Shown: one piece after another, positions 1-52,039 of the stretch
Layout: each line of letters starts with the position of its first letter
Numbering within the stretch: position 1 is the first letter of the stretch
Assembly (NCBI RefSeq): GCF_901765095.1
Contig: NC_044034.1
Location: 62,626,339-62,690,338, forward strand
DNA length: 64,000 nt
Direction of reading: 5' to 3'
Origin: Microcaecilia unicolor
Lineage: Eukaryota
The notes under the pieces: generated by a model
Database searches by the model: none
What the model was told of the DNA's origin: nothing
What the model saw: only the letters and a program-made list of their open reading frames with translations
Program-made: the position numbers and the translations under genes

Positions 1-48
1 AGAAAATTTAGAAGGTATTTTGAGTATTGATATGTCTACCATTCCTCT

Positions 49-2560: not shown

Positions 2561-2562
2561 AC

Positions 2563-3597: not shown

Positions 3598-3750
3598 GAT
3601 CCAACTCCACCCCCCAAGGCCCATGTTTTATTCTGTTCCAGGCTGCACTCTCAGTTAGTTGGAAAAACTGTTAGGTCAATCTCAGTTATGTCCTCGCCGT
3701 TGCGAGGCCCAATTGACCATGTTTGTTGTTTTGAGTGAGCCTGGGGACTA

Positions 3751-4117: not shown

Positions 4118-4462
4118 AACACTTGCTATACCGCTATAGCTGAGCACAGACCTAAGCGGTTCTCAGACTAAAGTAATGAAATCGGAAAAAGAACTACAAT
4201 GTACGATAGGAAAGTAGGGGATAAAAACAACCGAATTAAATTATAGGCCTCAGGAGTAGAAGGAAAACACAGGAGGGGTAGAGAAAGGAAGGAGGGGTTG
4301 TGGATGAAAAAGGGAAAACTCGCATAAGTTCAGTTAACTAGTCACTGAAAGCTTGCTGAAAAAGCCATGTCTTAATGGCAGTCTTAAACTTGGACAGGGA
4401 TAGCTTGGCATGGATCTCATTAGAGAGACTGTTCCATATCATAGGTGCCAGAAAACACTTTT

Positions 4463-5455
4463 TCAGATCCTTTCACACTTGGCAAGATGAGGTCCTGGAA
4501 GAACCATCCAATGGTCACTGAGCAATTGCAAAACTCGCGCAGGGGTATAGGGAACAATGAGGGAAGCGAGAGAAGAAAGATAACCAATGCAAAAGGTCTT
4601 GAAGGCCAATAAAAGTATTTTACATTGTGTCCAGAAGATAACAGGCAACCAATGGTGTTCTTGGAAAAGGGGGTTTGCTTGGTCATTTTTACCAGTATGG
4701 CAGAGAAGCCTGATAGCAGTGTTTTGTACAAATTGAAGTTTCTTAGTGATAGTTTGTGTAGCACCAGCAAAAACAATATTGCAATAGACAAGTTTGGTTG
4801 TGATGAGAGAAAGAAGAAGAACGTTGAAAGAATCATGAGTGACGAATCTAGAGCATAGTTGCCTAAGTGTAAAGAAACAGGACATTACTACAACAGGAAG
4901 TATAGGATGAGAAGGATAACCGAGAATCAGTTTGGTCACCTAGGTAACGAAAATAGGGGACGGGTGTGATGGATGTTCCAAAAAGGAGACTGGAGGATGG
5001 GTAGGTCTGTTCCCCCGTGATCCAACAGGCTTCAGTCTTACTGGGATTTAGGATCATACTATGAGAAGAAAGCCACTGAGAGAGAGCATCTAAACACAGC
5101 TGAAGTGTTGAGATGCAAGAAGATGGATCATTGTAATAAAGTAGGAGAATATCATCATAAATGTATGTGGAGATACAGAAACTTTGAATCAAAAAGGCTA
5201 GTGGACTGAGGAATAGATTAAATACAAGGGGCAAGAGGATAGAACCTGGAGGAACACCACTGTGGAAAAGTTGAAATGAGTATTACGATGAAGCAGAGAT
5301 GACTTTAAAAGGAGCATGAAGAAAGAAAGGAAGAGATCAGTTGCAACAGTAATCCAGAGATACCGATAGAAGCCAGGCAAGAAAAGAAGCTTGTAATCAA
5401 TGAGGTTGAAAGCTGATGAAAGATCTAAGGATATAGCAAGAGCATAACAACCCAA
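4463..5455 (-). mobile_element. non-LTR retrotransposon fragment: RT C-terminal part followed by conserved 'LDYCN...HWLPV' motif region
   Basis: Broken ORFs 5198..5455, 4863..5234 and 4463..4939 on the minus strand. RT-like 'YIYDDILLL' and 'ILNPSKTE', then '...LVYCNIVFAG...LQFVQNTAIRLL...HWLPVIFW...FKTF'. Confidence 0.5.
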
Positions 5456-5689
5456 ATCTAATTGTGCTTAGAAAGCTAGCTAGGACCGTTTTTGTGCAAT
5501 AATGAGTCCCTATAGCCTGATTGCTTAGGGTGCAAAGTAAAAGTTGATTCAACAAAAGAAGAGATGTTGAAAAACTGCCTTTTCTAAGATCCTGGAGAGG
5601 AAGCATAGATTGGAGACTGTACGGTAATGCTTTGGATCAGAAGGGTCAAGGATAGGCTTCTTAAGAATCTGATAAACTAGAATCCTTAT

Positions 5690-6700
5690 GGATAGAAATT
5701 CCATGTGTTAAGGGGAAAAGGATAGTGATAAGAGTGTACTACTGTCCACCTGTCCAGGATGAACAGACTGATTTAGAAATGCTATCAGAAATTAGGGAGG
5801 CTAACAAACTGGGCAACACAATAATAATGAGTGATTTCAATTAAGCTGATGTTGACTGGTTAAATGTAATAGTGCATGCTAAGGAGGTAAAATTCCTTGA
5901 TGAAATCAACGACTGCTTTATGGAGCAGCTGGTTCAGGAACCAACAAGAGGGGAAAACATTCTGGACCTAGTCCTTAGTGGAGCACATGATCTGATGCAG
6001 GAGGCAATGGTGCTGGGGGCTGCTTGATAACAGTGATCATAATATGATCAGATTTGATATTGGCTTTGGAGTAAGTATACACAGGAAATCCCAATACGTT
6101 AGCATTTAACTTTGAAAAAGGAGACCGTGATAAAATGGGAAAAACAGTACAAAAAAAAAAAACCTTTAGAGGAGCAACTGCAAAGGTCAAAAATTTACAT
6201 CAGGAGTGGATGCTGTTCAAAAATACCATGCTGGAAATCCAGACCAGACATATTCAGTGTATTAAAAAAAGGAGGAAGGAAGGGCAAACGACAGCCAGCA
6301 TTGTTAAAAAGTGAGGTGAAGGAAGCTATTAGAGATAAAAGATAATCCTTCAGAAAATGGAAGAAGCATCTGACTGAAATTAATAGGAAACAGCATAAGG
6401 AATGGCAAGTCAAATGCTAAGTGCTGATAAGGAAGGCAAAGAAAGACTTTGAAAAGAAGATTGCATTGGAGGCAAAAATACAGAATAGTAACTTTTTTAT
6501 GTATATTGGAAGCAAGAAGCTGGCAAAAGAATCAGACAACAAAACAGCAGATACAAACCGGAAGAATGTTCAAAAATTTATTGATGATGTCAAATACCAG
6601 ACTTATTGCCCGACACAGGCCGTGTTTCGCCCAAGAAGGGCTACGTCAGGGGCTAAATCAATTAAAACACATAGAAATAACCCATAAAAGTAAATACTTA
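5690..6700 (+). mobile_element. CR1-like LINE 5' portion (AP-endonuclease domain and ORF2 N-terminal linker), frameshifted
   Basis: Translated pieces 'GDFN'-type EN region, 'EQLVQEPTRGENILDLVLSGAHDLMQE', and ORFs 6112..6345 and 6421..6687 ('FFMYIGSKKLAKES' resembles CR1 'FFKYI.SK'). Confidence 0.5.
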
Positions 6701-8160
6701 AAAATACAACATTACAAATTACTGTAAATAAAATAATAGAATAGAATAAATATAATACACCATGGATTAAATAAAAAATAAATGACTACATTTATAGCTA
6801 ATGATAACTTATAATACAAAAATATATGAGTCAATAAAAGACTACCCACATACATTAGTATCAAGGGCATATACAATAATAAATATTAAAACTGAAAATA
6901 CAGAGACCATATTTCTATAATTTATGAAACCCTAATATTTAAATTAATTGCCTGATAAACTCAATCTGTAATTTTTTAACAATATATACTAAAACCAGAT
7001 AGGACACGGACATTAATAGAATGAAATAAATATAACACATACCAAAAATCTCAGAGATATCATTCATCGTAATAAATGCTATTTGAATAAAATCAGAATA
7101 AAAAAGTTAAAAATAACAAGAAGAAAAAAGGAAAAATAATGGAAAAGACAAATACTTATTCACATGAACCTTGAAATGCTAGGTTCTTGATAGAATAATT
7201 AGTTCTTGAAAAAAACAGCAGGAAGGATATACTCTGGAGCAGTATAAAAATTAACAGAATCAAATTAGTCACTACTCTCATAAATCTTTGTAAGAGAAGT
7301 ACATATAATCCATGGTACTCCATATCAATCAGGTAACCCTATTACATAAGATTGACTAATTCAAAGCAAAAAACAGGACCAAAATGCCTTTAAAACATTT
7401 CTGACTTATAAATACTGGGGAAGCAAATCATCGTACAAAGCACACGTCACTGCAAGGTGAGTGCAGACAAAACTGTAAACTATATAAAAAAAGGTGTATG
7501 AAAATCATAGACTTACAATGACTATCATCACATGCCTTTCCTCCAGTGCTGAAAAAACAGATGGATAAGTGGTCTTGTTTTTATATATAATCAGATCCTA
7601 GTTCAAAGGTCAAAAGGCACGTATGTCATAGGTCAGAGACTGTCCAACACAACAAAACAAAAGACTTACATTGTGGATATAAACCAAAGTGGCGAACATG
7701 CATTAAAAAGCGAATATATATGGAATAGTCACTACAAAGCTAAAAACTGATAAAAACAAATAACTGTGGGCAAGTCCCACATCTAAAATGGCCGTCTTAG
7801 CCCTTCCTGCTTCTTTAGTGGTGCAGTCAGCTTAAAAACAGATGACTATGGGCATATACCACATCCAAAATGGCCGTCTAAGCGCCTGAAAACAAATAAC
7901 TATGGGCATGTACCACATCCAAAACGGCTGTCTTAGCCAACAAAACCTATCGGCCCTTACTGCTTCTTTAGTGATGCCATCTTATCGCAAAAATAGACAT
8001 TAAAATCAAATAGGATATAAAAATGTGGAAAAATAAATAAATAATAAAAAAACGAAAAATGAAAAATGTTGGTAAACAAAAGATAAAAATACAAATAGCA
8101 TATGATAATTAAGGCAAATGGTCGTGTCCTATCAACCCCAAATGAAATCATGGAAATAAA
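6700..8160. repeat. AT/A-rich low-complexity block containing a ~70-bp tandem repeat (about 3 units, ~7770-7990)
   Basis: 'ccacatc(t/c)aaaatggccgtcttagc...' repeated three times, embedded in 'aataaaataat'-type low complexity. Confidence 0.55.
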
Positions 8161-8364
8161 ATCAGAGAAATACTGATAAATCTGTTTCCATGTTTAAACC
8201 ATTAGGATTTAAAGTCTCTAACTCAAATATAAATTGTTCTTCTTTCCGCAGCAGGGCAATTTCACTAGAACCACCCCTCCAATTACGTTTATACACAAAC
8301 AACACACAGAATCAGAAATCCTCAAATTTATGACCCTTAACTACTGAATGTTCCACCAGTTTTA

Positions 8365-9109
8365 TCAAGTGCATTCCTTTTGATTGCTCTTATGTTCAAT
8401 TATTCTGATATTGAATCTCCTTTTAGTCTTACCTATATATGCCATCCCACATGGGCACAAAACTACATAGATAACATTCTGTGTTTTACAATTGGAAAAA
8501 CAATTTAAATGTACCTTAATACTAATATTAATAGCTAGAAAAGGAATAGTTTTAGTGTTGTAGTTCATCTGAAACTTTAGATTGGAGTCAAGTGTATTTA
8601 ACCAAGAGAAAAAATTCTCTAAACTGCTTACAGTCCCTCTCCAAACTAAAAAAAAAAGTGTCATCTGTATACCGTTTCCACAAGTGAATGTTATCTACAA
8701 AATTATTGTTTGAGAGATATTTCTCTTCAAAATTACACACATACAGGTTAGCAATTGAAGGAGCGAAAGTAGCCCCCATAGCAGTACCCTTTACTTGCTA
8801 ATAATATTTCCCATTAAAAGCAAAAAAATTCTTTGTTAGTGCAATGGTGGCTAATTCTACTATAAATTCAGTAGGGATGCGACGATAAAAGTCTCTATTG
8901 GCGATAGTGTTCCTAATGATCTCTATGGATTCGAACTGTGGTATATTTGTATACAGACTCTCTATATCTAAGTTGACTAAAATCATGTCACTACTCGGAG
9001 TCATAGTGTTGAGTAGATTAATCCTGTCAGCTGTATCGCGGATGTAGGATGGAATCTTACTCACAAATGGACGAAGAAATTTATCTATAAAAATGGACAA
9101 TGGTTCCAA
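8365..9109 (-). mobile_element. Penelope-like element (PLE) fragment: RT followed by GIY-YIG endonuclease
   Basis: ORFs 8798..9109 and 8588..8779 carry RT-like 'GATFAPSIANLYV' and 'RYTDDTFFF' (Y-x-DD box). ORF 8365..8664 has 'VIYVVLCPCGMAYIGKTKRRFNIRIIEH', a GIY-YIG core with a CxC insertion, as in PLE endonucleases. Confidence 0.65.
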
Positions 9110-9655
9110 TAGGAAGCAATGTCAATATGAAGACTAGTGTCTTTCACGTTACCTCTTCAAATAAAAAGGTACATTTAAATTGTTTCTCCAGTTGTACGAC
9201 TGGTAGCGCTATAGAAATGATTTGTAGTAGTAGTAACTGCTCAGTTGGTCTCATTAAAGCGGTCTTTCTCTCTCTACTTCCAAATTGAGACTGGCGAAAA
9301 ATCAAGTATTTCCAGACTGAATTTGAGCTCCTGGGCCAATTAGAGCCCAGAACAACATTTTTTAAAAGTAGCTGGCCATATCAATGCAGGATACTTTCTC
9401 TTTGTGTTAAACTAAAGTAGGAACAGTCATTTCTCTGTAGCAGCTTTAAACATAAAACATGCACCACCTGCTGGCCACACTAGAGAAATACACATCAAGA
9501 AATAATACAGTTTACAAACTTTAAAACCCACTGTTTTGTCACAATCTTAAACTAACTGTGAAATTTTCTAGTCAAAAAGAGTAGTCTGTAAATTTAAGTA
9601 GAGTAATCTTTTTTTTATTATTATTTTAATAATAGACGTATAGGTACCAATACAG

Positions 9656-9850
9656 TCCAAGAATATGGATGAAGTTTCTCTTATTTCCTTTTCTTACTGT
9701 AAAGGTAAAAGTGCCTTTCAATCTGAAACGGACTCAGATAGAATCTCTTCCCAGAGAGCTCCGTCTTACATGCCCTGTATGCTGCAGGTACCTGTGGCAC
9801 AAGCCTTTGGAAGTTTAAATACCATGGAAGAATCACAGCAGTCTTCAATG
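9656..9850 (+). other. candidate protein-coding exon (copy 1, exon a) of unidentified host gene; FG-containing peptide
   Basis: Acceptor 'ccaatacag|' at 9651-9655 and donor 'ATG|gtaagc' at 9851. Single open frame from ATG 9665 (62 codons): '...SSQRAPSYMPCMLQVPVAQAFGSLNTMEESQQSSM'. The exon is duplicated at 20991-21188 with conserved splice sites. Confidence 0.35.
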
Positions 9851-9949
9851 GTAAGCAAATACATATTTGATTCTGCAGCCTGGGTACTATACAGAAGGTG
9901 ATTTTTCTTCTCTTTTCCTAGTACAGGGATGCAGGAGTTCAGTTGTCGA

Positions 9950-10130
9950 GTTCAGCAAGCAGGTCAGGTTTTCAGGAAATCCCTAATGAATGTGAATGAG
10001 AGAGATTTGCATACAATGGAGATAGTTTCCATTCAGCTCTTTCATGCATATTTATCTTCATTAGATGCAAATCTCTCTCATGCATATTCATTATCAATAT
10101 TCTGAAAACCTGACCTGTTTGCTGCACTCT
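9950..10130. mobile_element. short palindromic MITE ('caggtcaggttttcagga(a/t)atcc...' TIR family)
   Basis: Self-complementary ~180 bp. Related copies at 21290-21425, 25130-25255 and 40725-40890. Confidence 0.5.
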
Positions 10131-11679
10131 CCTACAACCCTTAACTTTAGTGTACAATAATGCCTTTGCTGACTGGCATCAGTGTTTTTGTTGTAGCTTG
10201 AGCCATGTTGGTTATCCTATGAGGATAATTTTATAACAGGTCACGTAGGCTATAAGCATATATCCTGTCTTCTAATATCCCAGATGCCGGGTTTTAAAAA
10301 TTGCACCATGGCACCTAGGATTTCTCACCCCAGTTAATTGCTTACTTGGCACCCACTGCCACTCATAATAGAGCACATGTACTGGGGGGGGGGGGGGGGG
10401 GATAAAGGATCATGTCCATCTGCACCATAGGAATCTTTTTACATTTGAGCTGCACTATGTACCACTCTTCTCGCCTCAGTCTCAAGAGAAGTCCGTTTTC
10501 CATTTTTTTTAAACACCTCATTACAGATGTGCCATCAAGGCAAAAGGGATGAGAAAAGGCTTAAACATGTTTCTATGTACTTAATGGCAAACATTTACAC
10601 CTGCTTCCGAGCAGGCCTAAATATCTGTGGTTTCATTGTAGCTGCAATTTTTGCAGCTTTTCTGGGACAAATGTATACAAACACATGTGCCTTTAAAAAG
10701 TAGGGCCAAAATAGGTGCTCACTTATCCTCCCAGCCTAGGTGACCTGCTTTAAAATTGGGCTTACAGGGAGCAGTGTTCATTGTCATCATATCCAGTTCA
10801 TGTTAATCATATAATTATTTAATTATCTTTAACTGGGTCTCATTGTTACCATTTTGAATCTGGTGCTGCCAGGAGAAGGAACAACTGAGGATTGGCCCTT
10901 CCCAGGATCACCTAGACCGCCAAGAATTGTTTCAGGTAGGCTGGAGGGTGTAAGGGGGGGGGGGGGTATCTGCATATTAGTAAGTCTCATGGTGAACTAA
11001 TCTGTGGTGAAATGGTTTTTTATTTGTTATTTACCGCAGCTTTGCAATTCCCTCCCCACTCCCCAAATGTCAGTGCTATCTGACCTTGGCATGCCTGTTT
11101 CCCCTCCCACAGTTAACTGGATAAGTTTTGACCAGATATCAAGCTGTCTAGCTAAAATCTAGTCTCTGCAGTGGTGAGGGAACCCAGGGAAAAATGAAAC
11201 CCAGCGATTTGTTCAGGTTACACCAAAATTTGCCTGGAAAAATAATTTTAATATCAACTTTGTAGCTTTCTATGTTGTTTTTCATCTTCCTTTTTCCTCT
11301 TTCATACTTTCCACTCTAATATTGCCCACCAATATTCTTTTTGTTCATTGGTATTGTGTAGCAGTTGACTTTTGGCTTTCATATCCTTCAAAATGAAATG
11401 CCATTGTCTGTCATGCCAACCAGGAATTGCACCAGTCATCATCCAATATCTCCCTGCTGCAGTGTGCCCACCTCTTGATATCTTTCTATTTCCATGACTT
11501 TACCATAGTTACAGATAATCTCATTTTCTTTAGAAATTGTTGCAAAGTTGTATCTAAAATTTGTAGGAAAACAAGTGGCAGTAGTAGTATTATATGCAGG
11601 AAAAGATGTACTAAATGTATATGGTTTCTGGGAAGCATTATACCAGTGTTATACCATGATTTGTTGTATGTTTCATTAG

Positions 11680-11776
11680 GTTCCGTGTCTGATGGAGCAG
11701 GAACTCATGGTAGGAAGTGCGTGCAAATCTAGTTCATCCCTGAACACTGGATTGTTTGGGTCAGCCTCTGGAGCCA
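11680..11776 (+). other. candidate exon (copy 1, exon b): FG/GLFG-type peptide 'VPCLMEQELMVGSACKSSSSLNTGLFGSASGA'
   Basis: Acceptor 'tttcattag|' and donor 'GAGCCA|gtaagtaaag'. Only the phase-0 frame is open, matching the phase-0 end of the exon at 9850. The paralog at 23804-23900 has identical boundaries. Confidence 0.35.
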
Positions 11777-13134
11777 GTAAGTAAAGGCCTAACTTCCAAT
11801 TCTTATGGTAATGGGGTTTTAGGAGTCTAATAAATTGCCTTTCTGAAGAAGTGGTCAGTACAAAAAAAGAGAGGCAATATGGATCTGTAGATGAAAGCGG
11901 TCAGAAGAATAGAACGGATCACAGTGTGTTTTGAACTTCATTGTGATCCGTTCTGTTCTTTCTAAAGAAGTTCCATCTCAGTGGGACTTAAAGATGGACA
12001 GGGAGGATAAAAGGCTTTGCTTATTGTAAAGGAAGAAGGGGGTTCAAAAGGTAGACAGTAAAAGAAAAAGGGTTGAATCAAAGTGAGGAGAGAGCACAGA
12101 ATAAGTAAGGGTATATAATAATTTTAGGGATGAGATTTAGAAAGGAACAGATGAGATCAAGACTTTAAATCAGAGCACGCAGAAGGATCAATTAAATATA
12201 TGGATGGATGGAGAACCGGTAGAGTGACTCAAGCAGGAAAAAACAAAATACAGACATGCAGGAGAAGGAAATGGTTCTTACTACTGCATTCTGAATGAAT
12301 TCCAAGGTAGCAAGGTAAGAAATGGGTAAACCAGAAATAAGGTAACTTCAATATTCAATGTGAGAGAGGATTGGAGCGTTGAGTATTTTGGCTCTAATGG
12401 AACAGAACAGGAGCGAAATTTCAACTTTATGGATAATCAATAGAAATAGAATACAATAAAACATGGAAAAGAAAATAAGCTGATACCTTTTTTATTGGAC
12501 TAACTTAATAACATTTTTGATTAACTTTCGAAGGTAGCCCTTCTTCAACAGATCAGAAATAAGCAAATTTTGATAAGTAATAGCATATATAAGTGAAACT
12601 TTATGGAGGAAGAAGTGAAAAAGTTTTTTTGTTAGGAGAGTGGAAAAAGCATGTAGACTGAATTTCAGGGTGTTTTGAGAGGTTGGTTGCAGGGAAGGTC
12701 CAGTTAGGGAATGTTTGGAAGGGAGGAGCACTATGAGAGAACAGAGCTACAGAGCCCCAGAAGTTAAAGGAGTATAGAAGTGCTTAGAGGTATCAAAAGA
12801 AGAAGAAATATAAAGAAAGATGCTAGTTACACAGCTTAAGTGAGCGAAAAATTATTTTCTCACATTTATTTTAAATCTGCTATTTGCTAGTTTCAGGGAG
12901 TGCCCCTGAGTAATTTTTGAAAGCATAAACTATTGTCTTTACTCTCTGTTTCTTTGTTAGGGGGCAATTGCCATTATCATTTCTGTTGTACTTCTCTGCA
13001 CCTTGTCTAGTTTTTCCAGTGAGAATACTGACCTTTAGTTTAGCTTTCCCCCCCCTATCTTTAACCAGTTACCAACACATAATAGGACATTGCATTCTAT
13101 CCCATGACTTTTTAATTTCTTGAGGAGTCTGTTA

Positions 13135-13330
13135 TGAGGGATTCTACTACTACTACAATTTATCATTTCTATAGAACTACAAGGCATATGCAGTGCTGTA
13201 CACCATACACAAAAAAGACAGTCCCTGCTCAAAGAGCTTACAATCTAGATACCGGTAAGACAGGTAAACAGACAGAACAATTAAGGGTAAGGGGATAAAT
13301 AGGTGAGGATAAAGGACAGGGCAAGTGAGT
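13135..13330 (+). repeat. SINE-like repeat, family A ('...cagtgctgtaca...acagtccctgctcaaagagcttacaatctag...')
   Basis: Second copy at 59208-59410 sharing 'ctactactac' head and 'CAGTCCCTGCTCAAGGAGCTTACAATCTAA' core. Confidence 0.35.
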
Positions 13331-13959
13331 AGTGGTTAGGATTCTATCAAATATCTTCTGAAAATCCAGATACATTGCATCAACCAACTTCCTATTATAT
13401 TTTACTAGCTTGGTAAGACAAGACTTTTATTAGATAAATTCATGCTATCTATTTCCTATTAAATCACGTCTATACATATACCTAGTCGGGCAGCAGAATG
13501 CCTTTTTGTTTGGAGGGCCAAGCTCTGCCTCCAACCCCACCCATGGTCTGTCCCCAGCTCCAGCATATCCCCTTACCTAACATCCCATAACCCTCCCCCT
13601 CCCATGGCATGCAGCATCCTTCCCTACCTTTGAACCTCCCACCACAGTGCCTAGTATTTCTCTCCTCCCCCCCCCACCCCATATCCAGCAATTCTCTGCC
13701 CCCCCCCCCCACGACATGTTTTGTGCCTTACCTCCAAAAGCATAGAGGCCAGCTGGCGCGGGGACTTGATCATCTGTGCATGCTTATGGCCTGCCTGCTC
13801 CCTCCCCCTCCAAACTTCTTATTTCATGCTCATGGCCCCGCGCCTGCCACCTTCAGTGCTTTTGGTGCTGAGCCCATTGGAGTATTGCTGCCCTTGAGGA
13901 GGGAGGTAAGGTACTAAACTCGTTGTAGGGAGAGAGGAAGGTGGAGAGAAGGAGAAACA

Positions 13960-15240
13960 TAGAAACATGACGGCAGATAAAGGCCATATGGCCCATCCAG
14001 TCTGCCCATCCTCTTTAACCCCTAACTCTTCCTTCTAAGCAATCCCACATGCTTATCCCATGGCTTTTAAAATTCTGACACAGTTCTTGACTCCGCAACC
14101 TCCACCTGGAGGCCATGCCATGCCTCCACCACCCTTTCTGTGAAATAATACTTTCTTAGATTACTTCTAAGCCTATTCCCTATTAACTTCATCGTATGCC
14201 CCCTTGTTTCAGAGCTCTCCTTCAGTAGAAAAAGGCTCACTTCCTGTACATAAATGCCCTTGAGATATTTAAACGTCTCTATCATGTCTCCTCTCTCCCT
14301 CCTCTCTTCCAGCATTTACATGTTGAGGTTCATAAGCCTGTCCCTATATTTTTTGTGTTCAAGACCGCTTACTAATTTTGTAGCCGCCCTGTGGACTGAC
14401 TCCATCCTGTTTATATCTTTTTGTAGGTCCGGTCTCCAGAACTGCACACAGTACTCTAAATGGGGCCTCACTAGAGACTTATACAATGGCACTATCACCT
14501 CCTTTTGCTGGAAGAGGGGGTGGTGGTTGGGAGGCGAGGATAGGGGAGGGCAGACTTATACGGTCTGTACCAGAGCCGATGATGGGAGGCGGGACTGGTG
14601 GTTAGGAGGCGGGAAATACTGCTGGGCAGACTTATATGGTCTGTGCCCTGAAAAGGACAGGTACAAATTCAAGGTAAGGTATACACATATGAGTTTGTCT
14701 TGGGCAGTCACCCCCAAGTCCCGCTCTTCCTTTGTACACTGAAGCACTTCACCCCTTATACTGTACCATTCCCTCAGATTCTTGCAACCCAAATGCATGA
14801 CCCTGCATTTTTGGGGATTAAATCTTAGTTGACTAATATCAGGCCATTCCTCCAGCTTCGCTAGGTCCTTCTTCATGTCATTCACATCCTCCAGGGTGTC
14901 CACCTGATTGCAGAGTTTGGTATCATCCGCAAAGAGACAAACCTTACCAGACAGCCCTCCTGCAATATCGCTCACAAAGATGTTAAAAAGAGCCGGCCCA
15001 AGGACCGATCCCTTTGGTACTCCACTGACAACATCCTTTTCTTCAGAGCAAGTTCCATTTACCACTACCCTCTGGGTTAAAAATTGGTTGAATGGAAGGA
15101 GACAATCATATACTCTAGATCCCGTACCAAGGGCACTCAATTTATTTATCAGTCGCCTATGCGGAACTGTGTCAAAGGCTTTGCTGAAATCCAAGTACAC
15201 CACATCAATCGCCCCTCCCACATCCAACTGTTTGGTCACC
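13960..15240 (-). mobile_element. CR1-like LINE, 3' half (RT, C-terminal domain, 3'UTR), interrupted near 14500-14700 by a plus-strand CR1 3'UTR fragment
   Basis: ORF 14556..15239 carries 'VVYLDFSKAFDTVPH', '[16 protein letters not shown]', 'FADDTKL' and 'MHLG'. ORFs 14316..14498 and 14067..14315 carry CR1 C-terminal '[21 protein letters not shown]' and 'RGDMIETFKYL...RGHTMKL'. The 3'UTR tail has 'ggatgggcagactggatgggccatatggcc' (reverse complement) at 13960-14040. Confidence 0.7.
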
Positions 15241-15339
15241 TAGTCGAAAAAGTCAGTCAAATTCGTCTGACACGAGAAGTTGGAGCAATGTTCCCTCTAA
15301 GGACTGACATTGACATGAGCAAAAATTTTATAAGTACAT

Positions 15340-15720
15340 AAGTAGTGCCATACTGGGAAAGACCAAAGGTCCATCTAGCCCAGCATCCTGTCACCGACAG
15401 TGGCCAATCCAGGTCAAGGGCACCTGGCACGCTCCCTAAACGTAAAAACATTCCAGACAAGTTATACCTAAAAATGCGGAATTTTTCCAAGTCCATTTAA
15501 TAGCGGTCCTGAACATGGGTCAGTCGGTCCTAAGAGATAGGCGAGCGCCGTTCGGAAGGGAATCTATCCTTTAGGAATCTATCTAACCCCTTTTTAAACT
15601 CCGTCAAGCTAACCGCCCGTACCACGTTCTCCGGCAACGAATTCCAGAGTCTAATTACACGTTGGGTGAAGAAAAATTTTCTCCGATTCGTTTTAAATTT
15701 ACCACACTGTAGCTTCAACT
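15340..15720 (-). mobile_element. CR1-like LINE 3' end fragment (C-terminus + 3'UTR)
   Basis: ORF 15530..15718 'MKLQCGKFKTNRRKFFFTQRVIRLWNSLPENVV...'. 3'UTR 'cataagtagtgccatactgggaaagaccaaaggtccatctagcccag' at 15340-15400. Confidence 0.55.
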
Positions 15721-16180
15721 CATGCCCTCTAGTCCTAGTATTTTTGGATAGCGTGTTACATTACATTGTGATCACTTCTTGCAGATAACACACACACATA
15801 AGTAAACATTCACAGGGAGGCTGAATAGAATTCCATGAGACACGCATTTCCCCCTGTACTATGCAAATATAAAGATAGAAGATACAAATTCCCAAAACTA
15901 ACAAATACAAATAAAACAAATGTGATGATACCATTGTATTGGACTAACTATATTTTCAATTAGCTTTCAGAGGCCAAAACCTCTTTCCTGTGGTCAGGAC
16001 AGTATACTGCTGTTATAGTATTCTGTTGTGATAAGAGAATGTATTAAAATTAGTCCAATAAATGTATCACCTTATTTCCTTATTTTGTATTAACACAGCT
16101 ACTACACTACGTTATCCTAAACTGAAAATAAAATTCATTTTTTCCATCTTCTGTTATTTGGCTGTTTACTTTTTCTAATA

Positions 16181-16400
16181 TTGTTGGTCCCAATCTCTTG
16201 TTTCTGGTTTCCTCATTGTTGTCTTAACTGTCACCAGTGTCTGCCCCCTTTGTCTCTCTTCCCCCTTTCCATCCATTGTCTCCCCCCCTCTCTCTTTCTC
16301 TCCCCTTCCTATCCATTGTCTGCGCTCTTTCTCTCTCTCTCTCCCTCACATCCTAGCGTCTGCCCTCTCTCACTCTCATTCTTTCCATCCCCCGCCCCAT
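16181..16400. repeat. CT-rich low-complexity tract
   Basis: 'ctctctttctctcccc...' composition. ORF 16181..16402 is a composition artefact. Confidence 0.55.
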
Positions 16401-16439
16401 AGTACTATTTGCTTTCATTTACTGTTTTATTATTTTTCT

Positions 16440-19400
16440 ATGCACTTTTACATAAGAACATAAGAGTAGCCATACTTGGTCAGACCAATGGTCCATCTAG
16501 ACCAGTATCCTGTTTCCAAATAGTGGCCAAGCCAGGTCACAAGTTCCTAGCAAAAATCAAATTAGTAGCAACATTCCATGCTACCAGTCCTGGGGCAAGC
16601 AGTTGCTTCTCCATGTCTGTCTGAATAGCAAACTATGGACTTTTTCTCCACGAACTTTTCCTAACCTTTTTTAAACCCAGATACGCTAACTGCTGTTACC
16701 ACAATCTTCAGCAAAGAGTTCAAGAGCTTAACTATACATTGAGTCAAAAAATATTTGCTCCTATTTGTTTTAAAAGTATTTCCATGTAACTTCCTTGAGT
16801 ATCCCCTAGTCTGTACTTTTGGAACGAGTAGAAAATCGTTTTCTACTCGTTCTACACCACTCAGGATTTTGTAGAGCTCAATCATATCTCCCCTCATCGG
16901 TCTCTTTTCCAAGCTGAAGAGCCCTAACCTCTTTAGCCATGCCTCATACATGAGGATTTCCATCCCCTTCATCATTATTGTCGCTCTTCTTTGAACCATT
17001 TCTAATTGTTATGCATAACTAAAATCTAAAATAAAGATATTAAAAGCTAAAAAACAAAACAAAACCATTTCTAATTCCTCTAAATCTTTTTTTGTGATAC
17101 GGTATCCAGAACTGAACACAGTACTCAAAGTGCAGTCGCACCATGGAGCAATACAGAGGCATTATAGTGTTTTTGGTCTTATTCACTATTCCTTTCCTAA
17201 TAGTTCCTAGCATCCTGTTTGTTTTTTTGGCTGCCACCACACACTGAGCAGACGATTTCAACTTATTATCTACGACGACACCTAGATCTTTTTCTTGAGT
17301 GCTGACACCCAAGGTGGACCCTTGCATCAAGAAACTATGATTCAGATTATACTTTCCAATGTGCATCACCTTGCATTTGTCCACATTAAATTTCATCTGC
17401 CATTTGGATGCCCAGTCTTCCAATTTCCTAAGATGTTCCTTCAGTGTTTCACAGTCCGCATGTATTTTAACAACCGTGAATAGTTTTTTATCATCTGCAA
17501 ATTTAATCACCTCACTTGTCCCAGTACTGATCCCTGTACCGATAGCACCAATCTCAGTACCGATCCTTGCGGAACTCCACTGGCCACCCTCCTCCTTTGA
17601 GAGAAATGACCATTTAAGCCTTCCCTCTGTTTTCCGTCCAATAACCAATTTCTAATCCACACCAGAACCTTGCCTCCTATCCCATGACTCTTTAATTTTC
17701 TCAGGAGTCTCTCATGAGGAACTTTATCAAAAGGTTTCTTAAAATCTAAATACTACATCAACCGGCTCACCTTTATCCACATGTTTATTTATGCCTTCAA
17801 AGAAATTAATCAAATTGGTGAGGCAAGACTTTCCTTGGCTGAAGCCATGCTGACTCTGTTCTAATTAAACCATATTTGTCTATGTGTTCGGTAATTTTAT
17901 TCTTTATAATAGTTTCCACTATTTTGACTGGCACTGACGTCAGGCATACCAGTCTGTAATTTCCCGGATCACCCCTAGAACCCTTAAAAAAAAAATTGGT
18001 GTCACATTGGTCACCCTCCGATCTTCAGATACTACAGATGATTTTAGTGACAGGTTACATATTACTAACAGCAGATCAGCAATTTCAAGCTTGAGTTCTT
18101 TGAGTAATCTTGGATGTATACCATCCGATCCAGGTGATTTACTACTCTTTAATTTGTCAGTACATCTTCCAGGTTCACTGAGACTTATTTCTCTGTATCA
18201 TCACCCTTGAAAACCATTTCCGGTACAGGCCGCTCTCTTATATCTTCTTCCTAAAGACAGAAGCAAAGAATTCATTCAGTTTCTCCTCCTTGGCCATGTC
18301 CTCCCTGAGTGCCCATTTTGCTCCTTTGTGATCTAACGGTCCCACAGATTGCCTCGCAGGCTTTCTTCTGATGTACCTAAAATAGTTGTTACTGTGAGTT
18401 TTAGCCTTTGCGGCAAGTTTCTCTTCATCTTCTCTTGTAGCCTTCTTTATTAATGCTTTGCATCTGACTTGCCAGTGCTTATGTTGCTTCTTATTTTCTT
18501 CATTTGGCCTCTTTTACTTCACCTTTTAAACAGGCTGGCTGTCGTTTTCTCTTCTTTCTACCTTAGCAAATACGTGGAATGCATCTGATCTGGGCTTCCA
18601 GGATGGTATTTTGAATAACATCCTTGCCTTATTTAGAGTCCTAACCTTAGCAGCTGATCCTTTTAATTTCTTTTTCCTCATTTTATTATAGTCGCTCATT
18701 CGAAAATTAAATGCATCTACAATAGATTTCCTTCGTGGGTTCATCCCAGATAGTAGCTCAAACTTGATAACATTATGATCACTGTTTCCCAGGCAGACCC
18801 AACATCGCCATCTCTCGCACTATGCCTTGCATGCCACCAAGGACCAGATCCAAAGTGGCTTACCCTCTTGTCAGTTCCTGGACCAGTTCTTCCTAGAAGC
18901 AGTCATTTATTACATCTAGAAATTTTATCTCCCTGGCACTCCCTGATGCAACGTAAATATTTCTTGGTATCTCTGTTCAATCCCAGTGGACAATAGTACA
19001 GGACAAGAATATTCCTTCCCTTCGCACATGGAATTTCTAGCCATAATGATTCCACGCTGCTATCTTTGTTATGTGGAATGGTTATTTTATATGACTCAAT
19101 TCCCTCTTTAACATATAGCACAACCCCCTTCCATTTTGATCCTCTCTGTCATTGCAATATATCATTTGTACCCTGTTAACACAGTGTCCCATTGATTGTC
19201 CTTTTTCCACTAAGTCTCTGAGATGCCTATTATATCTACCTCATCATTTAGTGCTATATACTCTTCCTTCTTATTTTTTAGGCTTCTAGCATTTGTATAC
19301 AGGCCCTTCATATTGTGTTTTTTCCTTTGATTTACAAGCTGCTTAGAAGTTGAAGGGGATAATTTGCATCCTTTATCCTGCTCTCTCATTAAACACACCT

Positions 19401-19500
19401 GGCTTACTTTCAGCACTGTTGAAACTTCTCTACTGGGATTCCCTAAATGTCCTGTTTCAATAGTATCCTTCAAGGATATTCCACACTGAACCATTTGCTC
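16440..19500 (-). mobile_element. CR1-like LINE, degraded near-full-length copy (EN start through 3'UTR)
   Basis: ORF 19210..19494 has the EN N-terminus '...NARSLKNKKEEYIALNDEVDIIGISET'. ORF 17040..17648 has RT motifs 'FADDKKLF' and 'MHIGKYNL'. ORF 16661..16999 has the C-terminus 'RGDMIELYKIL...KLHGNTFKTNRSKYFLTQ'. The 3'UTR at 16440-16660 is 'cataagaacataagagtagccatacttgg...'. Confidence 0.65.
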
Positions 19501-19855
19501 CTGGGCGACTGTCGGCTTTCCCCCGCATTGTAGTCTAAAAGCTGCTCTATCTCCTTTTTAAAGCGCCATCTCCATCCATGTTAAGGCAGAGGCCATCCTT
19601 TCGGAACAGTCTCCCCCTTTCCCAGAACGTTGCCCAGTTCCCAACAAATTTAAATCCCTCATCCCTGTGCCATCGTCTCAACCATACATTGAGACTTCGG
19701 AGCTGTGCCTGCCTTTTGGGTCCTGCATATGGAACAGGGAATATTTCTGAAAATGCAACCCTAGAGGTTCTTGATTTGAGCTTTCTAGCCAAGAGCCTAA
19801 ATTTGGCTTCCAGAACCTCTCTTCCACATTTTCATTTGAAGGAGTAAACAAACAT

Positions 19856-20930
19856 GTGGACAAAGGGGAACCGGTTGATATTGTGTATCTGGATTTTCAA
19901 AAGGCGTTTGACAAGGTACCTCATGAAAGGCTACAGAGGAAATTGGAGGGTCATGGGATAGGAGGAAATGTCCTATTGTGGATTAAAAACTGGTTGAAGG
20001 ATAGGAAACAGAGAGTGGGGTTAAATGGGCAGTATTCACAATGGAGAAGGGTAGTTAGTGGGGTTCCTCAGGGGTCTGTGCTAAGACAGCTGCTTTTTAA
20101 TATATTTATAAATGATTTGGAGATAGGAGTAACTAGCGAGGTAATTAAATTTGCTGATGACACAAAGTTATTCAAAGTTCTTAAATCGCGACAGGATTGT
20201 GAAAAATTACGAGACTGGGAGACTGGGCGGCTAAATGGCAGATGACGTTTAATGTGAGCAAGTGCAAGGTGATGCATGTGGGAAAAAAGAACCTGAATTA
20301 TAGCTACGTCATGCAAGGTTCCACGTTAGGAGTTACGGACCAAGAAAGGGATCTGGGTGTCGTCGTCGATAATACACTGAAACCTTCTGCTCAGTGTGCT
20401 GCTGCGGCTAGGAAAGCGAATAGAATGTTGGGTATTATTAGGAAAGGTATGGAAAACAGGTGTGAGGATGTTATAATGCCGTTGTATCACTCCATGCTGC
20501 GACCGCACCTTGAGTATTGTGTTCAATTCTGGTCGCCGCAACTCAAGAAAGATATAGTAGAATTGGAAAAGGTGCAGCGAAGGGTGACTAAAATGATAGC
20601 GGGGATGGGACGACTTCCCTATGAAGAAAGATTAAGGAGGTTAGGGCTATTCAGCTTGGAGAAGAGACGGCTGAGGGGAGACATGATAGAGGTACATAAA
20701 ATAATGAGTGGAGTGGAACAGGTGGATGTGAAGCGTCTGTTCACGCTTTCCAAAAATACTAGGACTAGGGGGCATGATATGAAACTACAGTGTAGTAAAT
20801 TTAAAACAAATCGGAGAAAATTTTTCTTCACCCAACGTATAATTAAACTCTGGAATTCGTTGCCGGAGAAAGTGGTGAAGGCCCAGTTCTTAAACTAATT
20901 GTGAAATTTTCTGGACAAAAAGAGTAGTCT
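19856..20930 (+). mobile_element. CR1-like LINE, 5'-truncated (RT through C-terminus), one frameshift
   Basis: ORF 19856..20245 has '[20 protein letters not shown]', '[16 protein letters not shown]' and 'FADDTKLF'. ORF 20242..20898 has 'KCKVMHVGKKN', '[13 protein letters not shown]', 'RGDMIEVHKIM' and 'RGHDMKLQCSKFKTNRRKFFFTQR'. Confidence 0.75.
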
Positions 20931-20990
20931 GTAAATGTAAGTAGAGTAATCACTTTTTATTTAGAAATAGTTGTATGAGTACCATTGCAG

Positions 20991-21188
20991 TCCAATAATA
21001 TGGATGACTTTTGTCTTATTTACTTTTCTTATTGTGTAGGTACAAGTGCTTTTCAATCTAAAATGGTGTCAAATGGAATCTCTTCCCAGAGAGCTCCATC
21101 TCTGTTCAGCATGCCCTGTATGGAGGCACCTATGTCACAGGCCTTTGGAAGTTTAAGTACCTTGGAAGAATCGCAGTCATCTTCAATG
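20991..21188 (+). other. candidate exon (copy 2, exon a), paralog of 9656-9850
   Basis: Acceptor 'ccattgcag|' and donor 'ATG|gtaagt' at 21189. 63 open codons from ATG 21000: 'MDDFCLIYFSYCVGTSAFQSKMVSNGISSQRAPSLFSMPCMEAPMSQAFGSLSTLEESQSSSM'. Confidence 0.35.
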
Positions 21189-21289
21189 GTAAGTAATACA
21201 TGTTTGATTCTGCAGCTTGGGTACTACACAGAAAGTGATTTTTCTTCTTTTTTCCTAGTACAGGGATGCAGGAGTTCAGTTGTCGAGTG

Positions 21290-21425
21290 CAGCAAACAGG
21301 TCAGGTTTTCAGGATAACCCTAATGAATGTGCGTGAGAGAGATTTGCTTACAATGGAGATAGTTTCCATTCAGATCTCGCTCATGCATATTCATTATGGA
21401 TATTCTGAAAACCTGACCTGTTTTT
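21290..21425. mobile_element. short palindromic MITE (same family as 9950-10130), inside the duplicated block
   Basis: 'caggtcaggttttcaggataaccctaatgaatgtg...cattatggatattctgaaaacctgacctg'. Confidence 0.45.
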
Positions 21426-23803
21426 CTGCACTCGAGGACTGAACTCCTACATCCCTGTCCTAGTGTACGTATCCCTTTGCTGACTGACATCAGTGTTTTT
21501 GTTGTAGCTTGAACCATATTTGATTTACTGAAGGTCATAGAAGATATATTTGCTTGAGTTGGTTATACTGTGAGGATAATTTTATAACAGGGCAGCTAGG
21601 CTATGAACACACATGGGCGTATTTTCTGGCTTCTAATATCCCAGATGCCGGGTTCTAAAAATTGCACCATGGCACCTGGGATTTCTTACCCCAATTATTT
21701 CCTTATTTGGCAGCCACTCAGAATAGAGCACATGTACTGGTGGTGGTGGTGGTGGGGAGGGGGGGGGGGGGGGGGGGGGATAAAGGACCATGTCCATCTG
21801 CACCATGGGAATCTCTTTACATTTGAGCTGCACTATGCACCACTCTTCTCACCTCAATCTCAAGAGACTTCCATTTTCCATTTTTATTTAACACAACTCA
21901 TTATAGATGTGCCATCAAGGTGAAATGAATGAGACCATCTTGAACATGTTTGTATGTACTTAATGGTAAACATTTACACCTGCTTGCGAGCAGGCATAAA
22001 TGTCTGTGGTTTCATTGTAGCTGCAATTTTTGCAGCTTTTCTGAGGAAATGTATACACACATGTGCCTTTAAAAAGAAGGGCCAAAATAGGTGCTCACTA
22101 TCCCTCCCAGCCTAGGTGACCTGCTTTAAAATGGGCTTACAGGGAACAATATTCACTGTCATCATATTCAGTTCGTTAATCATATAATTATTTAATTATT
22201 TTTAACTGGATATATCAAGTGACTTATCCAGTTAAGCCTAATCTGCTGAATATAGTCAATTAAAGATAACTGTTATCTGTTATCTTAGGCTTGTCATATA
22301 TGCAGCCAGATTTAACCAGAAATGTTTTACCAGATAGCTCTAAAGGGGGTAGTTATAATACACAATTTTTGACTGTAACTTGGCATTAAATGGCAAAATT
22401 ATACATTGTTTTACTGTAACACATGCAAATAACCTAATTATTATTCTAATAAAGTAACAAAAATTAACCCTGCAAGTTCCATTATCCGTGGAAATACAGT
22501 GCAAGCTCAAAGCTGGCATTAATTGTCCTGCTTAGGAGCATCTGTCCACTAACATGTGGCCCAGTGACCCTAGCCATCATCATAAAGGGGCTAGGACTGC
22601 ACAAAGCTGAACAGTGTTCCCCATCCCAAACATTCCCACCTCCTTGTAGGCTACCTCTATCCATTCCTGGTGGTATAGGGAGTCTGGGGTAGGAACAATC
22701 CCCAGTACCCTTACATGGTGGCTGACTCTTTGTTGTAGTACTATGAGACTACCACTAGGGCTGATTGGTGTCACTTTGAATCTGGTGCTGCCAGGGGAAG
22801 GAGCAACTGAGGATTGCCCCTACCCTGGATCACCTAGACCACCAAGAATTGATTGAAGTAGGCTGGGGGAGGAATATCTTTAAGGGGAAAGGGAGCACTG
22901 ATCAGCTTTGTGCAGCTCCACTCCTTTTCCCTAGGAGCATTGGGCCATGCAAGCTTTGTGCAGCTCCACCCCCTTTCCCTAGGAGCATCGGGCCATGCAT
23001 TAGTAGCCACTTGCTTCCAGGGAGCAGAATAATGGATCTTGCATTATTGATTACAAGTTGCATTATTAATTTCCTACAGGAGCCACTAACCTGCGGTGTT
23101 GAGTTACTAAACATTAGTAAGTCTCATGGTAAACTAATCTGTGGTAAAATGCCTTTTTATTTTTTTATTGCAGCTTTATAACCTCCCCCACTAAATGTCA
23201 GTGCTATCTGTCCTTGGCATGCCTGTTTCCCCTCCCACAGTTAAGTTTTGACCAGATATCAAGCTGTTTTGCTAAACTCTACAGTGACTGCAGTGGTATG
23301 AGAACCCAGGGAAAAATGAAACACAGTGATTTGTCCAGGGAACACCAAAAATTGCCTGGAAAAATAATTTTAATATCAACCTTGAAGCTTTCTAAGTTGT
23401 TTTTCATCTTCCTTTTTTCTTGTTTCATACTTTCCACTCTAATATTACCCACCAATATTCTTTTTGTTCACTGGTATTGTGTAGCAGTTGATTTTTTGGC
23501 TTTCATATCCTCCAAAATGAAATGCCATTGTCTATCATGCCAACCAGGAATTGCACCAGTCATCATCCAATATCTCCCTGCTGCAGTGTGCCCACCTCTT
23601 GATATCTTTCTATTTCCATGACTTTACCATGGTTACAGATAATCTCATTTTCTTTAGAAATTGTTGCAAAGTTGTATCTAAAATTTGTAGGAAAACAAGT
23701 GGCAGTAGTAGTATTTTATGCAGGGAAAGATGTACTAAATGTATATGGTTCCTGGGAAGCATTATACCAGTGTTATACCATGATTTGATTTATGTCTCAT
23801 TAG

Positions 23804-23900
23804 GTTCAGTCTCAGATGGATTGGGAACCGTTGAGAAGAACTATGGTAGAAAGTGTAGGCGGATCTACTGGATTTACCTTTGGAACAACCTTTGGAGCCA
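23804..23900 (+). other. candidate exon (copy 2, exon b): 'VQSQMDWEPLRRTMVESVGGSTGFTFGTTFGA' (FxFG-type repeats)
   Basis: Acceptor 'ctcattag|' and donor 'GAGCCA|gtaagtaaag'. Same 97-nt length and phase as 11680-11776. Confidence 0.35.
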
Positions 23901-25129
23901 GTAAGTAAAGGCCTAACTTCCAGTTCTTCTGGGTATTGGGTTTTTAGGAATCAGATTGCCTTTCTGAAGAAGTGGTTGGTTCAAAAAAGAGAGGCAATAT
24001 GGATCTGTAGATGAAAGCGGTCAGAAGAGCATAACGGATCACAGTGAAGTTCAAAACAGAGCAAAGCTTTATTGGAAAATAAAGCTTTGCTGTGTTTTGA
24101 ACTTCATTGTGATCCGTTCTGTTCTTTCTAAAGAAGTGCCGTCTCAGTGAGACTTAAAGATGGACAGGAGGAAAAAGGCTTTGCTTATTGCAAAGGAAGA
24201 AGGGAGTTCAAAAGGTAGACAGTAAAAGAAAAAGGGTTGAGGAATCAAAGTGATCAGAGAGCACAGGATAAGTAAGGGTATGTAACAGTTTTAGGGATGA
24301 AATTTAGAAAGGAACAGATGAGATCAAGACCTTCAAAACAGAGAATGCGGAAGGATCAATTTAATATAAAGATGTTTGGAGAACAGGGAAAACAAAAAAC
24401 AGACGTGCAGGAGAAGGAAATGCTTACTACTGCATTCTGAATGAATTCCAAGGTAGCAAGGTAAGAAATGAGTGAACCAGAAAAAAGGTAACTACATTAG
24501 TCAATGTGAGAGAGGACTGGAACGTCATAGGCGTAGCCAGGTTTTGATGTCAGGGGGAGCAAACGTTTGTAAAGTAGTCACCAGTTGGTGTCGGCTAGTG
24601 TTGTCACTCAGGTGGGGTGGCTGTGGCAATGATTTAACAGTGGCTGCCTTTTTTGTGTCCCGCCTATGAGGAAAATAGGAAGTTACATCAGGAGGAGGGA
24701 TGCAGCAGAGAGCAGGCAGCCTGTCGTCTTAACTACAAGTAAAAATATTCAAATTGTGACCATCACCTCAGGGACTACACAACCACTGTTATACTCCTTC
24801 CACTGCTAGACACTTTTAAAAATTAGATGGGCTTTTGTTTTTATGGTGACTGTACAGGATGTAGAGACCAGTAGTCCCGAGCATTTTTACTTTGGGTAAC
24901 AAGGGCAATCAACCCCATAGCCTACTTTCAAATAGGGCCAGAAACTTTGTGAAATAACACAAAATCGTGCATGAAGACACTCAAAACTTATACTGAAAAC
25001 TTACCACACCATAACAGCCCTAACTCACTTATAAAAAGACAGTGACAAATATTATATTGGGCCCTAGAGCACCAATGTACCTGCTACTTGGAAACTGGCA
25101 CAAACACTACATGCTAGCACAGGGGTGGG

Positions 25130-52005: not shown

Positions 52006-52039
52006 GGCAAGAGCTACTGTGGATTCCTCTTGCCCAGAA

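Follow-up and report, generated by a model that had tools for sequence, protein, structure and literature searches.

Organization of the duplicated exons

In a 64-kb window of Microcaecilia unicolor contig NC_044034.1, by which we mean the whole stretch of DNA analysed, two blocks arranged in tandem carry short coding exons. As set out below, the window very probably holds the 3′ part of a plus-strand PARP4 gene, in which both units are tandem duplicates of a two-exon cassette encoding part of the protein's linker. An initial annotation of this DNA had described the segments 9600–12500 and 20940–24500 as paralogues with a period of about 11.3 kb and had read them as a tandem array of genes encoding peptides rich in phenylalanine-glycine (FG) motifs. 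We tested the paralogy by self-blastn of the window, which confirmed the relationship and refined the limits of the blocks; no further copy of either was detected within the 64 kb. The blocks and their predicted exons, together with a third exon of the same kind, are listed here by position in the window; residue numbers refer to the PARP4 protein of Rhinatrema bivittatum introduced below.

9545–12379, plus strand: copy 1 of the duplicated block, with cassette 1 (exons a1 and b1 and the intron between them) and flanks, by self-blastn
9705–9850, plus strand: predicted PARP4 linker exon a1, 146 nt, phase 1 in and 0 out, encoding KSAFQSETDSDRISSQRAPSYMPCMLQVPVAQAFGSLNTMEESQQSSM; splice sites and tblastn to Rhinatrema residues 1504–1549
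11680–11776, plus strand: predicted PARP4 linker exon b1, 97 nt, phase 0 in and 1 out, encoding VPCLMEQELMVGSACKSSSSLNTGLFGSASGA; splice sites
20888–24525, plus strand: duplicated block, copy 2 (cassette 2), by self-blastn; on the left it borders directly on the 3′ end of a long interspersed nuclear element (LINE) fragment
21040–21188, plus strand: predicted PARP4 linker exon a2, 149 nt, phase 1 in and 0 out; splice sites and tblastn to Rhinatrema PARP4
23804–23900, plus strand: predicted PARP4 linker exon b2, 97 nt, phase 0 in and 1 out, encoding VQSQMDWEPLRRTMVESVGGSTGFTFGTTFGA; splice sites
40007–40155, plus strand: exon a3, an older member of the a type, 149 nt, phase 1 in and 0 out; tblastn, profile searches and splice sites

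The blocks align in three segments, 9545–10836 with 20888–22209 (79.7% including gaps), 10832–10947 with 22754–22869 (85%) and 10976–12379 with 23113–24525 (84.4%), and with gaps excluded their aligned non-coding positions are 90.9% identical (2135/2348). The offset between the a exons, 11,335 bp, agrees with the period first proposed, and that between the b exons is 12,124 bp. This larger offset, like the longer a–b intron of copy 2 (2615 nt, compared with 1829 nt in copy 1, in line with the 1.8–2.6 kb originally reported), is explained by two insertions specific to copy 2 (22210–22753 and 22870–23112), which add some 790 bp to the intron.

The boundaries of exon b are the same in both copies (...cattag/GTTC...GAGCCA/gtaagtaa, slashes marking junctions here and below), as is its length of 97 nt, both as initially annotated. 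Exon a had been taken to run for 186–189 nt from an ATG to a phase 0 donor. The donor stands (ATG/gtaagc in a1, ATG/gtaagt in a2), but the ATG start does not, since a strong AG acceptor 40 nt downstream of the ATG (ttcttactgtaaag/GT at 9705 and ttcttattgtgtag/GT at 21040) defines an internal exon of 146 or 149 nt. Two copies of the unit had been recognized, which is correct for the blocks; the diverged exon a3 had not been listed. Its alignment with the other copies extends for only some 50 nt beyond either end of the exon; a3 retains the acceptor context and a GTAAGT donor, and shares about 37–38% of its amino acids with a1 and a2. Neither a partner b exon nor wider flanking homology for a3 was found in the window.

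Each a+b cassette measures 243 or 246 nt (approximately 81 residues) and is entered and left in phase 1, and a1-b1-a2-b2 forms one continuous open reading frame (ORF). Because the cassette is a multiple of three nucleotides with phase 1 at both ends, its gain, loss or skipping keeps the frame, and the frame was indeed kept on in silico removal of cassette 1, cassette 2 or both. Inclusion of all the cassettes in the mRNA is predicted from sequence. Profile hidden Markov models (HMMs) run against all stop-free segments on both strands of the window recovered exactly three A and two B exons. No exon b3 or b0 and no additional cassette was found in the window with nhmmer DNA profiles, with tblastn using the units of the window and of Rhinatrema as queries, or with protein profile HMMs. 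Two weak similarities were rejected as exons: 36564–36665 (plus strand) lies inside an element with an L1 ORF1-like minus-strand ORF (35797–36615), and 44502–44552 covers the same query residues as a better exon at 45312–45446.

Identification of the gene as PARP4

A homology search with the joined exon peptides had been proposed in the initial annotation. A word-indexed search with the spliced a1-b1-a2-b2 peptide gave zero matches. An exhaustive phmmer search of the same peptide against 1.84 billion representatives returned one relevant match, XP_029458356.1 (E = 4.2e-7, 46% identity, residues 1470–1553), which is recorded as 'protein mono-ADP-ribosyltransferase PARP4 isoform X3 [Rhinatrema bivittatum]'. 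This protein comes from a caecilian, the closest relative available for comparison, and contains the Pfam domains BRCT, PARP_reg, PARP catalytic, VIT and VWA. The second phmmer match, a 648-aa repeat protein (P0002), matched neither the a/b units nor the C-terminal domain described below and was discarded as bacterial, in our judgement, and a compositional artefact.

The match to the a/b units falls within a repeat of Rhinatrema PARP4 itself, which profile HMMs resolve as B(1460–1499)-A(1500–1548)-B(1549–1588)-A(1589–1638)-20 residues-B(1659–1698). Exon a2 is matched by tblastn to residues 1501–1551 (E = 7e-6) and 1589–1640 (48% identity), the b1 peptide SSSSLNTGLFGSAS aligns to Rhinatrema SSSLMSTNLFGAS and SSSVMSTSLFGASS, and b2 has its VQS start and its FGA(S) end in common with the Rhinatrema B units. 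The junctions between units correspond as well, with FGAS/TSGAEF in Rhinatrema and GAS/TSAFQS in the window at the b-to-a junction, and PSSM/VQSE and SSSM/VQSQ, respectively, at the a-to-b junction. Since the Rhinatrema protein reads through both junctions, the AG acceptor of exon a appears to be the one used, which would place the ATG in the polypyrimidine/branch region of the intron.

Profile HMMs detected no convincing a/b motifs in the incomplete PARP4 proteins from turtle, lizard, bat, bird, fish and tuatara. The one hint is a weak match in a PARP4-like fragment of Anolis sagrei (P0004), which contains 'SSGLFGSA' at residues ~21–31, upstream of the C-terminal domain (i-E 0.066 in a tiny database), resembling 'NTGLFGSA' of b1 and 'STSLFGAS' of Rhinatrema. 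Judging from these residues, (L)FG(S/A) may be an ancient motif that has been conserved within a PARP4 linker otherwise hypervariable.

The cassettes read into a conserved C-terminal domain

When XP_029458356.1 was compared with the window by tblastn, colinear plus-strand exons were found at 45.3, 50.4, 51.1 and 56.5 kb. They encode the MVP-interaction domain (MVP-ID), with which the protein ends.

45312–45446, plus strand: exon E45, 135 nt, phase 0 at both ends, covering the last part of the linker and the first part of the MVP-ID; tblastn to XP_029458356.1 residues 1786–1816, weaker (52%)
50359–50461, plus strand: exon E50, MVP-ID; 77% identity to residues 1817–1851, splice sites
51088–51220, plus strand: exon E51, MVP-ID; 86% identity to residues 1850–1898
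56525–56702, plus strand: last predicted PARP4 coding exon, with a TGA stop; 74% identity to residues 1895–1952

E45 has the acceptor tttatttgcag/ATG and the donor CAG/gtacag, and its peptide VTSLLALQNQ aligns from human PARP4 residue 1573 onward. Spliced together, the exons from 45312 to 56702 match seven proteins of PF26156 ('PARP4 MVP-ID C-terminal domain') from turtle, lizard, bat, bird, fish and tuatara, with a best E = 5e-48, as well as human PARP4 residues 1573–1719 in the vault electron cryomicroscopy (cryo-EM) structures 9bw6, 9bw7 and 11jf of the PDB (E = 8e-36). AlphaFold2 (AF2) predicts this domain to be helical, with predicted local distance difference test (pLDDT) scores of 84–90. 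Exon a3 joins E45 in frame, and the nine-exon chain a1-b1-a2-b2-a3-E45-E50-E51-last comprises 395 codons, is free of internal stops and terminates at the stop codon of PARP4. All nine exons are bounded by AG/GT and follow the order seen in Rhinatrema PARP4. Upstream of the cassettes, positions 1–9500 contain transposable element (TE) sequence only; exons for the N-terminal BRCT, PARP catalytic, VIT and vWA domains would be located 5′ of the window.

These results bear on whether the units are instead two separate FG-nucleoporin-like genes in tandem, each beginning with the ATG that precedes exon a by about 40 nt. Each of the three a copies retains the in-frame ATG (9665 in copy 1, 21000 in copy 2), and the peptide is enriched in FG dipeptides, as such genes would lead one to expect. 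However, the units lack a stop codon of their own and share one frame with the PARP4 MVP-ID and its stop codon, reading through in phase 1-1 into one another and into the PARP4 C-terminus, and Rhinatrema PARP4 crosses the b-to-a junction without a segment resembling the ATG-proximal MDDFCLIYFSYC. A Pfam hmmscan of a 162-aa spliced peptide gave 0 families at E ≤ 10, no nucleoporin appeared among the homology matches, the sole homologue is PARP4, and the FG density of about 1 per 35 aa is well under that of FG-nucleoporins. Separate nucleoporin-like genes are therefore exceedingly improbable. The exon-like segments of the initial annotation hold up as coding exons in a tandemly duplicated unit, and its nucleoporin-like gene array gives way to cassettes of a single gene; the PARP4 assignment corrects what would be a tempting misannotation as an FG-nucleoporin-like gene family.

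We consider the identification of the gene as PARP4, together with the exon model, to be well founded, and several points have to be set against it. The comparison relies on just one protein, Rhinatrema PARP4, and the match of the a/b peptide to it is modest (E about 1e-7 to 1e-5) and involves low-complexity sequence. No b-type exon follows a3, and about 145 Rhinatrema residues between the last A unit and the equivalent of E45 are unplaced, so that the model between 23.9 and 45.3 kb may lack fast-evolving exons. Finally, inclusion of each cassette in the mRNA is deduced from the computational annotation of the orthologue (an XP_ model).

Elements shared by the two blocks

The initial annotation had noted a miniature inverted-repeat transposable element (MITE), a G-homopolymer and a hairpin common to both segments, as well as a LINE cluster between them, and we located each of these in its place.

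9948–10129: MITE-like palindromic element in the a–b intron of copy 1 (arms 9948–10024 and 10053–10129)
11905–11960: short palindrome or hairpin AACGGATCACAGTG...CATTGTGATCCGTT downstream of exon b1; counterpart in copy 2 at 24025–24126
13960–20887: cluster of LINE-type reverse transcriptase fragments between the cassettes, with RVT_1 matches and internal inverted matches; the left boundary is the estimate of the initial annotation, unrefined

The MITE-like palindrome has its counterpart in copy 2 at 21255–21463 and is older than the cassette duplication. The poly-G runs lie at approximately 10386–10402 in copy 1 and 21757–21780 in copy 2. The arms of the hairpin are 49 nt long in copy 2 and only 22 nt in copy 1, where the central ~46 nt have been lost, a type of deletion expected at long perfect palindromes. 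Pfam RVT_1 matches between the copies were found at 14556–15239 (minus), 17040–17648 (minus) and 19856–20245 (plus), and this retrotransposon cluster inflates the spacing of the cassettes.

With so many repeats at hand, we asked whether the segments might themselves be TE-internal sequence with fortuitous splice-like motifs and open frames, an alternative already raised in the initial annotation. The window is TE-rich, and the units carry the MITE-like palindrome and abut LINE fragments. Against this, a exons occur only three times in the window and b exons only twice, always on the plus strand and in a colinear, in-phase arrangement with the PARP4 exons. Their homologue in another species is a single-copy host protein, and they show no similarity to the TE ORFs of the window and have no TE-domain homology in Pfam. 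Judged on the window, a TE origin of the exons is very improbable.

Nature of the cassette peptide

The 212-aa cassette peptide has a serine content of 22% and abounds in disorder-promoting residues. It contains short repeated motifs of the types PC-x2-AP, xFGS and LFGSA/FGAS. The FG peptides read as initially annotated, and FG dipeptides are indeed enriched, with six observed and 1.1 expected from residue shuffles (P = 0.0002). Recurring forms are xAFGSL, GLFGSA and FTFGTTFGA in the window, and LFGAS and FGAS in Rhinatrema. Searching PDB chains, full-length human PARP4 included, revealed no detectable similarity to the cassette region. In the AF2 model, residues 1–217 of the spliced peptide have no secondary structure, with pLDDT scores of 33–53; as the alignment supplied to AF2 had depth only over the C-terminal domain and none over the cassettes, these low scores are weak evidence of disorder, which also tells against our reading of the region.

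In being S/T/G-rich and apparently disordered, and in having GLFG-, FxFG- and xFGS-type motifs, the cassette peptide resembles the FG-nucleoporins (NUP98 for GLFG, NUP62 and NUP153 for FxFG). Unlike them, it has no family-level homology to these proteins and no domain for anchoring to the nuclear pore complex, and it would be part of a vault-resident enzyme. Moreover, FG-nucleoporins contain tens of FG motifs with spacers of about 10–20 aa, and the cassette peptide is far sparser. One could nevertheless suppose that the FG motifs are functional short linear motifs, their number tuned by cassette duplication, and that they make the linker a nucleoporin-like multivalent tether. We think this very improbable. 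Were it so, the PARP4 tether might have affinity for nuclear-transport receptors or FG-nucleoporins, or provide cohesion inside the vault lumen; vaults would be physically tied to the nuclear pore or transport machinery, and the number, inclusion and diversification of cassettes would modulate that interaction or its hijacking by viruses. To our knowledge, an association of vaults with this machinery was proposed decades ago and has never been explained.

Divergence between the cassettes

The exons of the two cassettes differ more than the DNA around them. Identity between copies is 84.6% in exon a (Fisher p = 0.018) and 69.4% in exon b (Fisher p = 4e-8), compared with 90.9% in the non-coding DNA. 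All four exon indels are multiples of three (6, 3, 12 and 12 nt), compared with 7 of 30 in the non-coding alignment. At the amino acid level, b1 and b2 are identical at 11 of 28–32 positions. The high nonsynonymous divergence reported initially, especially for exon b, was borne out by the dN/dS (ω) comparison that had been proposed along with it. By the Nei–Gojobori method, a1/a2 gave dN 0.17, dS 0.24 and ω 0.69; a1 or a2 against a3 gave dN 0.56–0.57, dS 0.54–0.60 and ω of about 1; and b1/b2, in a frame-preserving gapped alignment, gave dN 0.47, dS 0.28 and ω 1.7. These ratios are based on 28–49 codons and alone are not significantly greater than 1. Nonsynonymous divergence in exon b (0.35) exceeds the non-coding level of 0.091 per site (p = 4e-8), and that in exon a (0.15) does so marginally (p = 0.04).

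We infer that selection rather than mutation bias lies behind the divergence of the exons, which diverge faster than the introns and in this match the behaviour expected of a positively selected PARP4 linker. The small number of codons counsels caution here, and synonymous sites are also somewhat more diverged than the introns (p = 0.05–0.09), so part of the exon/intron contrast may reflect homogenization of the introns by gene conversion and not positive selection. One intron tract stood out:

11224–11679, plus strand: intron tract immediately preceding exon b1, conserved to an unusual degree; matching tract of copy 2 at ~23348–23803

Identity over this tract is 96.1%, compared with 89.7% in the other non-coding DNA (p = 7e-6), and reaches 98–99% over about 300 nt, with a sharp boundary at exon b. 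An explanation in terms of structured RNA was rejected, as the tract gave no folding signal (z = +1.5) and matched no Rfam family. We suspect that it is a gene-conversion tract or an unstructured splicing-regulatory sequence.

The same divergence could in principle arise if the duplication in PARP4 is real and one cassette, or a3, consists of dead pseudo-exons, with exon b diverging under relaxed constraint. That b1 and b2 share so few amino acids, and that a3 is without a partner b exon, would fit such decay. On the other hand, open frames and AG/GTAAG splice sites are preserved throughout the five exons, in which every indel is a multiple of three. Relaxed constraint cannot carry divergence beyond the neutral (intronic) level, whereas exon b is 3–4 times more diverged than its flanks, and the Rhinatrema protein model has two A and three B units in series. 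Loss of function in a cassette is thus unlikely, and we favour the view that the cassettes are live coding exons.

Amino acid identity is 70% between a1 and a2 and 37–49% between either of them and the Rhinatrema A units; the Rhinatrema B units bR1 and bR2 are 92% identical, and a3 is roughly equidistant from all others. Since the units group by species, the duplications appear to be lineage-specific, or homogenized within lineages, on top of an older repeat.

Comparison with known PARP4 linkers and a proposed mechanism

In human PARP4, exon 30, the largest exon, encodes a predicted disordered segment of ~360 aa whose sequence and length vary greatly from one vertebrate to another. Recurrent positive selection acts on this segment (human–rhesus dN/dS 1.75; also seen in bats and other vertebrate pairs) and on no other part of the gene, and its direct contact with viral factors has been proposed (Daugherty et al., 2014; PMC4038475). 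The segment belongs to the intrinsically disordered linker that connects the ITIH-like region with the MVP-ID (MVPID; Suskiewicz et al., 2023; PMC10450202), and a 2025 cryo-EM study defines the MINT domain as PARP4 residues 1562–1724 (PMC12280208). The cassettes of the window share several properties with this linker. They would occupy the same place in the same gene, directly upstream of the MVP-ID; their product is S-rich, apparently disordered and with little or no sequence conservation to human; its length differs between lineages; and its coding divergence is above neutral, with ω ~1.7 between paralogous cassettes here and 1.75 between human and rhesus orthologues. In contrast to the single exon of ~1.1 kb in mammals, the window has at least five small exons distributed along roughly 30 kb and organized as tandemly duplicated, phase-symmetric two-exon cassettes with FG motifs in every unit.

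The resemblance to Rhinatrema PARP4 is closer, extending to the same A/B units, the junction residues FGAS/TS and SSM/VQS, and the conserved MVP-ID that follows (74–86% over the last three exons). Even so, the order of units is B-A-B-A-x-B in Rhinatrema and a-b-a-b-a in the window, the B unit measures 40 aa in the former and 32–33 aa in the latter, and the diverged units are A in Rhinatrema and B in the window. Cassette number and arrangement differ, then, from those of the one other species compared.

Snake-venom phospholipase A2 (PLA2) and three-finger toxin genes provide a precedent for accelerated evolution in which exons diverge faster than introns. As in those genes, the introns here are better conserved than the adjacent exons between recent duplicates; unlike in the venom genes, the duplicates are cassettes inside one gene, and gene conversion of the introns is a plausible contributor.

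Taken together, these data suggest a sequence of events. A segment of ~3–4 kb containing exons a and b would have been duplicated in tandem inside PARP4, most simply by unequal crossing-over, and a3 would be the record of an earlier round. To judge by its sequence, the duplicate cassette would have been immediately translatable, adding about 81 residues to the tether, and later LINE insertions spread the cassettes to 11.3 kb apart. After the duplication the divergence of the coding parts outpaced that of the flanking non-coding DNA, presumably through the selection considered above, whereas near-identity was kept or regained in one intron tract or more, probably via gene conversion.

As far as we know, the vault particle houses no enzyme other than PARP4 and has no established function. 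The linker tethers the enzymatic and ITIH-like body to the MVP-ID, which docks PARP4 inside the vault shell, and the cassettes would add length and repeated short motifs to this flexible connection between vault-wall anchor and enzymatic body. By analogy with the published model, what the linker binds may be viral antagonists or targets, for which it would form the facing surface. Frame-neutral cassettes suggest a modular route by which linker length, valency and possibly isoform content could be altered beside point substitutions, and they offer natural variants for probing linker binding. A literature search found no paper naming PARP4 together with exon duplication. It is the cassette architecture that is new; the rapidly evolving PARP4 linker was already known, and no new gene family is involved.

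Other elements in the window

The whole window is TE-rich, with several LINE fragments across it. Positions 1–4140, which are GC-rich (53–54%) compared with the remaining window, contain a DIRS-like retrotransposon with a reverse transcriptase and RNase H ORF at 470–2560 and an overlapping ORF at 1708–3597 with a phage-integrase SAM-like domain, followed by short inverted repeats (3793–3857 and 4053–4117, 95%). An 84-nt tandem repeat with a 28-nt sub-unit (2.8 copies, 94% identity) occupies 34681–34912, where mechanical ORFs overlap on both strands. The element at 35345–37227 is bounded by 149-nt inverted repeats (35345–35493 and 37082–37227, 89%); its 272-aa minus-strand ORF, 35797–36615, has no Pfam match and shows by eye an L1-ORF1-like 'NYNRRLNLRI' motif. 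Two further coiled-coil ORFs that resemble ORF1 are located at 31391–31906 and 48088–48669, the latter with only a sub-threshold ATG16 match in Pfam.

A marginal Rfam match to the H/ACA small nucleolar RNA SNORA17 (29.7 bits, gathering score 29, E ~0.1) was found at 45856–45925 on the minus strand, in the E45–E50 intron and opposite to the predicted PARP4 gene; it covers 70 nt of a 132-position model and is probably spurious. A G-rich minisatellite at 46113–46854, with 41/91-nt units in ~10 copies, accounts for a strong GC-skew peak at 46–48 kb and yields artefactual minus-strand ORFs of up to 417 aa.

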